From NCBI RefSeq assembly GCF_058153355.1, contig NZ_CM177019.1: a DNA stretch of 64,000 nucleotides; one strand, written 5' to 3'. The notes under the pieces are model-generated. The model saw only the letters and a program-made list of their open reading frames with translations. It did no database searches and was not told the DNA's origin. Both the position numbers and the translations under genes were made by a program. Of this stretch, positions 16,239 to 18,573 are shown piece by piece (within the stretch, counting starts at the first letter, position 1; each line of letters begins with the position of its first letter).

Positions 16239-17591
16239 TTAACGAAACACCACTTCTGCCCAACGTGCCAGCCCGGCGGTAACCGACCCAAAGTCATCGC
16301 CGCCTGCAATTGGAATGCCCGGCAACTGTTCTGCCAGCGCTTTTTTAATCAGCGGTGATCGGGCGCTACCACCAGTCAGATAGATGACATCCGGTTTTTC
16401 CTGGGCGTTATCCAGCGCCAGTTGCACCTGTTCCAGAATTCGCGCCAGCGGCTGACTGAGGGCGTTTTCCAGTCCTTGTTGGCTAATCAGTGTTGCCAGT
16501 TCATCGCTGATAAACGGCAGCGATGCGCGGGTTTCCGCTGCGCTGGAAAGGGCGATTTTGCTCTCTTCCGCGCTGCGTACCAGCCGATAACTTAAACGCT
16601 GACGCCAGACTTTCTGTAACAGGGCCACTTTCTCCGGTTCGCGGGCGTCGCGTACCAGGTCGTTAAGCAGACGACCGTTAGCACTACTGTAGAAATCACT
16701 CTGCGCTGGTACATCGTTGATGGCAACCGCATTCCACCACGGCAGGATCGGCAGGGCGATGCCTTTTTCGGTTTCGCCACCCATGCCCAGTAACGGCATC
16801 AGGTTTTTAAACGCCAGCGCGATATCCAGATCGTTACCACCAATACGGCAACCACTATGACCCAGCAGGCTGGCTTCACGATCGAGACGCGAACGCCACT
16901 GTGGCCCCATTAGCAGTAAAGAACAGTCAGTCGTACCACCACCAATATCCACCACCAGCACCCGTTTTTCTTCCTGCAAGGTGGCTTCGTAATCCAGCCC
17001 AGCCGCCACCGGCTCGTACTGGAATACCACATCCTTAAACCCGGCACGCTTCGCTGCGCGCTCCAGAATCCCTTGTGCCTGGGCGTTTGCTTCATCGCCG
17101 CCCAGCCCCTGGAAGTTGATCGGGCGACCAATCACCGCCTGGGTAATCGCTTCTGGCAATTGCGCCTGCGCCTGTTGGCGAATGTGCAGCATCATTGCGC
17201 AGACCAGATCCTCAAACAGCGCTACCTGCTGCGGTTTTAAGCCGCTGGCACCGAGGAACGATTTTGGTGATTTCACAAACCACACTTCTTCCGGATCATC
17301 AATGTATTGTGCCAGTGAAGAAAGACCGAACTGCACGCTTTTCGCCGTGACATCGATATCTTCTTCGCGGTTATAACGAATTGCCCGACGTAATAGCGCC
17401 TGCGTTTCATTGTCGTCTGCCGGAACATCATGATGGCGGTACAGCCATTCGCTTACCGCTTCACGCGTTGGCGCGCAAAGCATTGAAGGCAGCAGCGTGC
17501 TGTCGTTTTCCATTTTCAGTAATTGCGGTTTACCGTCACGCATGACCGCCACTGAACAGTTTGCTGTACCGTAATCAAAACCAATAAACAC
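16239..17591 (-). CDS. yegD: Hsp70-family (actin-like ATPase) protein YegD
   Basis: Chosen start is the GTG at 17589-17591, giving 450 aa beginning (M)FIGFDYGTANCSVAV (phosphate-1 motif of Hsp70/actin fold); later VVDIGGGTTD. The ORF-track 471-aa form is an upstream extension. Confidence 0.85.
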   Translation of the reverse strand: MFIGFDYGTANCSVAVMRDGKPQLLKMENDSTLLPSMLCAPTREAVSEWLYRHHDVPADDNETQALLRRAIRYNREEDIDVTAKSVQFGLSSLAQYIDDPEEVWFVKSPKSFLGASGLKPQQVALFEDLVCAMMLHIRQQAQAQLPEAITQAVIGRPINFQGLGGDEANAQAQGILERAAKRAGFKDVVFQYEPVAAGLDYEATLQEEKRVLVVDIGGGTTDCSLLLMGPQWRSRLDREASLLGHSGCRIGGNDLDIALAFKNLMPLLGMGGETEKGIALPILPWWNAVAINDVPAQSDFYSSANGRLLNDLVRDAREPEKVALLQKVWRQRLSYRLVRSAEESKIALSSAAETRASLPFISDELATLISQQGLENALSQPLARILEQVQLALDNAQEKPDVIYLTGGSARSPLIKKALAEQLPGIPIAGGDDFGSVTAGLARWAEVVFR

Positions 17592-17663
17592 GAAATAATC
17601 CCCATGCCGGTGAAGAAGGGGCGTGACTTTAGCGAAATGTTGCCGTCGCGACAACCGGAATAT

Positions 17664-17677
17664 GAAAGCAAAGCGCA
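17664..17677 (+). promoter_or_regulatory. Ada box of the alkA promoter (GAAAGCAAAGCGCA)
   Basis: Matches the Ada-binding motif AAANNAAAGCGCA, ~50 nt upstream of the alkA ATG. Confidence 0.55.
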
Positions 17678-17724
17678 GCGTCTGAATAACGTTTATGCTG
17701 AAAGCGGATAAACAAGGAGAAGCG

Positions 17725-18573
17725 ATGTATACCCTGAACTGGCAGCCGCCATATGACTGGTCGTGGATGTTGGGATTTCTCGCCGCCCGCGCGGTGAGCG
17801 GCGTGGAAACGGTCGCTGACGATTTTTATGCCCGTAGTCTGGCGGTGGGCGAATATCGCGGCGTGGTGACTGCTATTCCGGATATAGCCAGCCATACTCT
17901 GCACATAAATTTAAGTGCAGGTTTAGAACCTGTTGCCGCTGAGTGTCTGGCGAAAATGAGCCGCCTGTTTGATCTGCAATGTCACCCGCAGATTGTTAAC
18001 GGTGCGTTGGGCAAGTTAGGCGCGGCGCGGCCCGGATTGCGTTTACCTGGTTGTGTTGATGCTTTTGAGCAGGGCGTGCGGGCGATTTTAGGCCAACTGG
18101 TGAGCGTGGCGATGGCGGCAAAATTGACCGCCAGAGTGGCACAGCTTTATGGCGAACGGCTGGATGATTTTCCGGATTATGTCTGCTTCCCCACGCCTCA
18201 GCGGCTGGCTGCAGCCGACCCGCAGGCATTAAAAGTGTTAGGTATGCCGTTGAAACGGGCAGAGGCGCTGATTCATCTGGCAAATGCGGCGCTGGAGGGC
18301 ACCTTACCAATGACAATACCGAGCGACGTAGAACAAGCGATGAAAACGCTGCAAACTTTTCCGGGTATCGGGCGCTGGACGGCGAATTATTTCGCCTTAC
18401 GTGGTTGGCAGGCGAAAGATGTTTTCCTGCCGGATGATTATCTGATTAAACAGCGATTTCCGGGAATGACACCGGCACAAATCCGCCGTTATGCCGAACG
18501 CTGGAAGCCCTGGCGTTCTTATGCGCTGTTGCATATCTGGTATACGGAAGGCTGGCAACCAGACGAAGCATGA
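17725..18573 (+). CDS. alkA: 3-methyladenine DNA glycosylase II (AlkA)
   Basis: Start chosen at the internal ATG (MYTLNWQPPYDWSWMLGFL...), giving 282 aa; HhH-GPD glycosylase region (FPGIGRWTANYFALRG). Confidence 0.92.
   Translation: MYTLNWQPPYDWSWMLGFLAARAVSGVETVADDFYARSLAVGEYRGVVTAIPDIASHTLHINLSAGLEPVAAECLAKMSRLFDLQCHPQIVNGALGKLGAARPGLRLPGCVDAFEQGVRAILGQLVSVAMAAKLTARVAQLYGERLDDFPDYVCFPTPQRLAAADPQALKVLGMPLKRAEALIHLANAALEGTLPMTIPSDVEQAMKTLQTFPGIGRWTANYFALRGWQAKDVFLPDDYLIKQRFPGMTPAQIRRYAERWKPWRSYALLHIWYTEGWQPDEA

Follow-up and report, generated by a model that had tools for sequence, protein, structure and literature searches.

The Ada site of the alkA promoter and a candidate divergent promoter of yegD in the yegD-alkA spacer of Escherichia coli

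The control of alkA by Ada has been described in reviews. Methylated Ada induces alkA, a gene of the Ada regulon, and the promoters of ada, alkA and aidB each possess the A box (AAT) together with the B box (GCAA), with distances from the start sites that differ among them. At the alkA promoter, the binding of RNA polymerase was reviewed as very weak, and the binding of the alpha subunit needs Ada. Furthermore, both methylated and unmethylated Ada stimulate alkA, and the action of Ada and RNA polymerase at this promoter differs from that at the ada and aidB promoters. In addition, the alkA promoter was reported to require the C-terminal domain of the alpha subunit (alpha-CTD), and the title of the paper by Landini and Busby (1999) names a contact with sigma70 at alkA. 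Mielecki et al. summarised the mutational work, in which the element was AAAGCGCA in ada and AAAGCAA in alkA, with AAT-N6-GCAA as the common core. Booth et al. gave the alkA site as AATATGAAAGCAA, with a distance of 53 nt to the start codon; this site is at positions 17659-17671 of the 64,000-bp stretch of DNA analysed here (the window). In the table of that study, alkA was the most strongly MNNG-induced gene (log2 +2.72), and AAT-N6-GCAA was also found upstream of unresponsive genes. In a full-text literature search with the literal promoter sequence, Booth et al. was the sole match.

The stretch 17592-17724 is the complete 133-bp intergenic spacer between the divergent genes yegD and alkA. 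The borders given in the earlier note were correct, since the RefSeq annotation of K-12 and of strain N96 starts yegD at the GTG at 17591 and alkA at the ATG at 17725. The yegD coding sequence (16239-17591, minus strand) encodes an Hsp70-family protein, and its GTG start (17591-17589) was set by alignment to the RefSeq yegD of K-12 and N96; across the orthologs this codon is kept as GTG or ATG. The alkA coding sequence (17725-18573, plus strand) encodes a 3-methyladenine DNA glycosylase II of 282 aa with 96.5% identity to K-12 AlkA. Its Shine-Dalgarno sequence AAGGAG (17714-17719, plus strand) lies 5 nt 5' of the ATG and is 71-100% conserved. The gene order yegI-yegD/alkA-dgcE was the same as in K-12. 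With a 701-bp query (window 17300-18000), matches were obtained in 5411 of the 5426 complete genomes of E. coli, all with the annotation yegD and alkA, and the 133-bp spacer as a lone query also matched 5411 of these genomes. The ada gene of K-12 is about 160 kb from alkA, a distance beyond the 64-kb window.

The alignment showed 100% identity with E. coli K-12 over 17560-17709, a segment that covers the yegD start, the Ada site and the alkA -10 hexamer and so corresponds to the known Ada-activated alkA promoter. Within the spacer, substitutions relative to K-12 were found only at 17710, 17713 and 17721, all of them 3' of the predicted alkA +1, and one further difference was a synonymous-region site within alkA. 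Judged from the alignment, the Ada site and the promoter are already known ones, and the regulatory part is unchanged from K-12; alkA in this strain should be alkylation-inducible as in K-12. The main claim of the earlier note, that an Ada site is present upstream of alkA in the divergent spacer, was supported by this identity and by the literature on Ada activation.

Over window 17300-18000, the identity to most E. coli, including K-12, was 96-97%, and the best match was strain N96 (Tibetan pig) with 99.1%. The spacer 17592-17724 alone showed 100% identity to strain M160133. The matches to N96 and M160133 suggest that the source belongs to an E. coli lineage that has been sequenced less often. 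In another strain, E. coli 23CRST001 (L062, 3094-4471), an IS4-like ISVsa5 element separated the Ada site from the alkA -10 hexamer, inserted at a point equivalent to about 17685/17686 of the window. This insertion should uncouple alkA from Ada in 23CRST001, where the annotated alkA coding sequence is 9 nt longer. Moreover, a scan revealed a terminator-like hairpin with a T-run at 17488-17504 (plus strand), within the yegD coding region and antisense to yegD. It is probably a chance occurrence, as one was found and 0.4 were expected.

The conservation of the Ada site was examined on orthologous alkA loci. One genome per species was taken, which gave 56 distinct enterobacterial upstream sequences from at least 15 genera, including Escherichia, Citrobacter, Enterobacter, Klebsiella, Raoultella, Kosakonia, Phytobacter, Lelliottia and Yokenella. 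The divergent yegD-alkA layout with a spacer of 130-149 bp was present in nearly all of the collected loci. The A box AAT (17659-17661, plus strand) was invariant in the 56 orthologs; in the B box GCAA (17668-17671, plus strand), GCA was invariant and the final A was present in 54 of the 56. The complete recognition site AATATGAAAGCAA (17659-17671, plus strand, centre 17665), which follows the literature definition AAT-N6-GCAA, was kept in 54 orthologs, and AAAGCAA was kept in 53. The mean column identity over the 13 columns of AAT-N6-GCAA was 0.965, against 0.54 in the spacer downstream. The same core was found in the K-12 promoters of ada, aidB and alkA. AAT-N6-GCAA had 10 matches in the window with 19 expected, and the revised consensus is thus uninformative by itself. 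The site is identified by its context and its conservation, and AAT-N6-GCAA alone has no statistical power. Taken together, this locus very probably represents the alkA promoter already known to depend on Ada, its site being that of the revised register (17659-17671).

The core promoter of alkA was located next to this site. The -10 hexamer TATGCT (17694-17699, plus strand) had invariant T1, A2 and T6, and its remaining positions were at least 89% conserved. The gap between the B box and the -10 hexamer was exactly 22 bp in 55 of the 56 orthologs. The predicted alkA transcription start is at about 17706 (17705-17707, plus strand), 6-8 nt downstream of the -10 hexamer, which corresponds to about 2147558-2147560 on the minus strand of MG1655 v3. 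A standard promoter scan of 17400-17900 found no promoter and a relaxed scan was needed; neither the standard nor the relaxed sigma70 scan revealed a plus-strand -35 with at least three of six matches. The lack of a usable -35 on this strand is expected where a promoter depends on an activator. A putative vestigial -35, AAGCGC (17671-17676, plus strand), was placed 17 bp from the -10 hexamer, and only its G17673 and C17674 were conserved. The centre of the Ada site, 17665, would lie at about -41 relative to the predicted +1 at 17706, over the vestigial -35. With the start placed from the hexamer positions, the layout would be that of an activator-dependent, class II-like promoter, in agreement with the weak binding of polymerase and the contact with sigma70 in the literature. 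In the supplements of ROSE, Rend-seq, Shigella M90T and Romero 2014, transcription starts of alkA and yegD were absent. An in-frame ATG at 17695, inside the -10 hexamer, opens a 292-aa reading frame beginning with MLKADKQGEAMYTLNW. Its use as the alkA start is unlikely because it is located 5' of the predicted transcription start and is preceded by no Shine-Dalgarno sequence.

The arrangement suggests the following course of induction. After alkylation damage, Ada methylated on Cys38 would bind AAT-N6-GCAA at 17659-17671. The bound Ada, ending 22 bp 5' of TATGCT, would substitute for a proper -35 and would recruit RNA polymerase via contacts with alpha-CTD and with region 4 of sigma70, which would lead to the induction of alkA. 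In this scheme, the motif with its coordinates, the K-12 identity, the pattern of conservation and the spacings were observed directly; the binding of Ada, its dependence on methylation and the polymerase contacts were taken from the literature, and both transcription starts and the yegD promoter are predictions of the present analysis.

The earlier note had assigned the Ada site to GAAAGCAAAGCGCA, and this sequence was found at exactly 17664-17677 (plus strand), as a match to the classic Ada box. The exact match (13/13) to the classic consensus AAANNAAAGCGCA at 17665-17677 (plus strand) was the single one in the window, with 0.13 expected. At least one match was obtained in 11 of 100 shuffles of the window, and for the window as a whole the match departs only weakly from randomness. 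For this 133-bp spacer in particular, the probability of a match is about 0.13 x 133/64000 (roughly 3e-4). An Ada site does exist here, but the consensus that was used for it, AAANNAAAGCGCA, has been superseded by AAT-N6-GCAA, and the site is at 17659-17671 instead of 17664-17677. The two registers give different boxes in alkA: AAT (17659-17661) with GCAA (17668-17671) in the revised one, against the equivalents AAG and GCAG in the classic one. The 5' half of the motif overlaps the true site and the 3' half overlaps the vestigial -35. The true site includes only AAAGCAA (17665-17671) of the 14-mer; the motif AAAGCAAAGCGCA shares only this heptamer with the Ada site, and its GCGCA tail falls in the region of the vestigial -35. 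The tail AGCGCA (17672-17677), which overlaps the vestigial -35, was poorly conserved, with an average identity of 0.71 over its six columns. Methylation-interference or mutational data reportedly show positions 17672-17677 to be dispensable for Ada binding at alkA. The offset between the registers in K-12 is 1 nt in ada and 6 nt in alkA, so that the 1986 alignment could match perfectly here while misplacing the alkA site.

On the opposite strand, a candidate was obtained for the divergent yegD promoter, which the earlier note had presumed to be in this region. Phylogenetic footprinting placed it at 17654-17626 (minus strand). Two near-invariant blocks were found on the plus strand, GACTTTA (17625-17631) and CGACAAC (17649-17655), which read as TAAAGT and TTGTCG on the minus strand. 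The proposed yegD -10, TAAAGT (17626-17631, minus strand), was invariant at all six positions in the 56 orthologs, and the proposed -35, TTGTCG (17649-17654, minus strand), was 89-100% conserved. The two hexamers were 17 bp apart in 55 of the 56 orthologs, and the columns of the spacer between them drifted (38-73% identity). TTGTCG-17 bp-TAAAGT has 8 of 12 matches to the sigma70 consensus; it was missed by the standard scan and found by the relaxed scan. In the relaxed scan, its two hexamers were both conserved (0.98 and 1.0), as in no other minus-strand sigma70 candidate; the others had an unconserved -35 or were conserved only in the part overlapping the Ada site. As expected of a sigma70 promoter, the spacing falls within 16-18 bp, and the hexamers and the spacer length are conserved while the spacer sequence drifts. 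Promoters of the sigma32 and sigma54 types were rejected for yegD by eye, as no acceptable -35/-10 or -24/-12 pair was seen. The yegD mRNA would start near 17619 (17618-17620), corresponding to about 2147645-2147647 on the plus strand of MG1655, with a leader of about 28 nt. The predicted starts of alkA and yegD are separated by about 87 bp, with the Ada site between the two -35 positions.

The reading of the alkA side was weighed against two other explanations. If the classic register were the functional one, Ada would recognise AAAGCGCA (17670-17677) in alkA as it does in ada, and the 14-mer of the earlier note would be the true site. The 13/13 match to AAANNAAAGCGCA, the presence of the same 8-mer in the K-12 ada promoter, and the conservation of G17673 (invariant) and C17674 (91%) inside the motif among the 56 orthologs speak for it, and some of the motif's 3' half is therefore of importance, perhaps as a -35 remnant. 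However, AAANNAAAGCGCA was kept in only 9 of the 56 orthologous alkA promoters, A17672 was G in 40 of them, and positions 17675-17677 were conserved at 62-75%. Furthermore, the aidB promoter of K-12 is without AAANNAAAGCGCA, and the classic consensus is hence not common to all Ada-regulated promoters. The AAG and GCAG of this register in place of AAT and GCAA, and the alkA element AAAGCAA with the core AAT-N6-GCAA in the literature, also point away from it, and a functional classic register is very unlikely. It is less credible still that the motif match is a functionless chance occurrence, for which the matches in 11 of the 100 shuffles and the even lower specificity of the revised consensus could be cited. 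The match is located precisely in the spacer upstream of alkA, in a segment identical to that of the characterised promoter in K-12, and it overlaps a 13-mer that is near-invariant among genera and whose distance from the -10 hexamer is fixed. The conservation and the K-12 identity effectively refute chance, and the Ada site is best read as AAT-N6-GCAA at 17659-17671.

For the other strand, the conserved blocks at 17625-17639 and 17649-17655 might instead be upstream elements of alkA, either alpha-CTD/UP-like or bound by a second regulator, with yegD transcribed from elsewhere. CGACAAC would lie at about -57 to -51 of alkA, in the range of alpha-CTD, which the alkA promoter reportedly requires; moreover, only 8 of the 12 positions in the yegD hexamers agree with the consensus, and the yegD start is itself a prediction. 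Nevertheless, the blocks are without the A/T richness of UP elements, and the second block, at -80 to -67, is beyond the reach of alpha-CTD. A distance of exactly 17 bp between the hexamers in 55 of the 56 orthologs, across sequence that itself varies, is a signature of a sigma70 promoter, and all the other minus-strand candidates have an unconserved hexamer. The upstream-element explanation is accordingly considered unlikely, and we favour, with some confidence, a yegD promoter of constitutive-looking sigma70 type at 17654-17626 on the minus strand. The Ada site is 4 bp from the proposed yegD -35, and its centre is at about -46 of the predicted yegD start. Transcription of yegD may thus be modulated by methyl-Ada or by the polymerase recruited to alkA, and separately the leader at 17599-17623 may be an undescribed translational control element; the two proposals together are a long shot. 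If true, an effect of Ada on yegD would link alkylation stress to a little-studied Hsp70-like chaperone. The text and supplement of Booth et al. do not list yegD, which is weak negative evidence on its response to alkylation.

The 5' leader of yegD was also conserved. The block CGCCCCTTCTTCACCGGCATGGGGA (17599-17623, minus strand) was near-invariant, with 95-100% column identity in the 56 orthologs, and the predicted leader, CGCCCCUUCUUCACCGGCAUGGGGA on the minus strand, was conserved far above the flanking spacer. It includes the Shine-Dalgarno sequence GGGGA (17603-17599) and the parts CUUCUUCAC and CCCC (17621-17618). The leader is non-coding, since a 1-nt indel occurs at 17613 in 17 of the 56 orthologs. 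The yegD frame remains open upstream to a TTG at 17654, which gives a mechanical reading frame of 471 aa compared with the annotated 450 aa. An N-terminally extended yegD starting from this TTG was rejected, since the indel breaks the frame and no codon-position pattern was seen. A structured RNA was rejected as well, since the minimum free energy hairpin CCCC/GGGG was no better than shuffles (z = 0.6). The Rfam search gave no family match for the leader, and the block is too invariant for covariation to show. Wang et al. (PMC4666370) found that RyhB activates the translation, but not the transcription, of yegD. In a simple duplex calculation, the pairing of RyhB with the leader did not surpass that of shuffled controls or of random genomic ones, which is in line with the weak CopraRNA rank for RyhB-yegD quoted in the literature. 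It is a remote possibility that RyhB acts on this leader when it activates yegD translation.

Several consequences follow for the annotation of this locus. The conservation across genera, apart from the biochemistry, shows that the constrained element at alkA is AAT-N6-GCAA rather than the classic AAANNAAAGCGCA. An Ada-box annotation based on the old consensus puts the site in alkA 6 bp downstream of its true position. In addition, the footprint proposes a position, open to testing, for the promoter of yegD, which is uncharacterised, and the unusually conserved yegD leader is flagged.

Compared with known systems, the classic Ada box AAANNAAAGCGCA (the 1986 consensus) has an exact match here, yet this match is offset by 6 bp from the conserved alkA site. 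The class II sigma70 promoters, in which an activator near -41.5 replaces the -35, would resemble this promoter in that the Ada centre is placed at -41 of the predicted +1 and no usable -35 is present, and the study cited above names a contact of alkA with sigma70 in its title. The alpha-CTD requirement of alkA in the literature differs from this class and points to a mixed mechanism, and the geometry depends on the predicted start. The K-12 ada and aidB promoters share the AAT-N6-GCAA core, as AATTAAAGCGCAA in ada, AATGTTTTAGCAA in aidB and AATATGAAAGCAA in alkA. They differ in the position of the site, which lies more distantly upstream of their core promoter, with 67-70 nt to the start codon compared with 54 nt at alkA. 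As in the Ada regulon, AAT-N6-GCAA is on the alkA strand here, adjoins the core promoter and is identical to the characterised K-12 site. The closest system is the K-12 alkA promoter (alkAp), with which this locus shares the identical segment 17560-17709 and the flanking genes yegI, yegD, alkA and dgcE. It differs from alkAp by the three substitutions in the predicted 5' UTR of this strain (17710, 17713 and 17721), which leave the Shine-Dalgarno sequence intact, and no functional difference from K-12 alkAp is expected.
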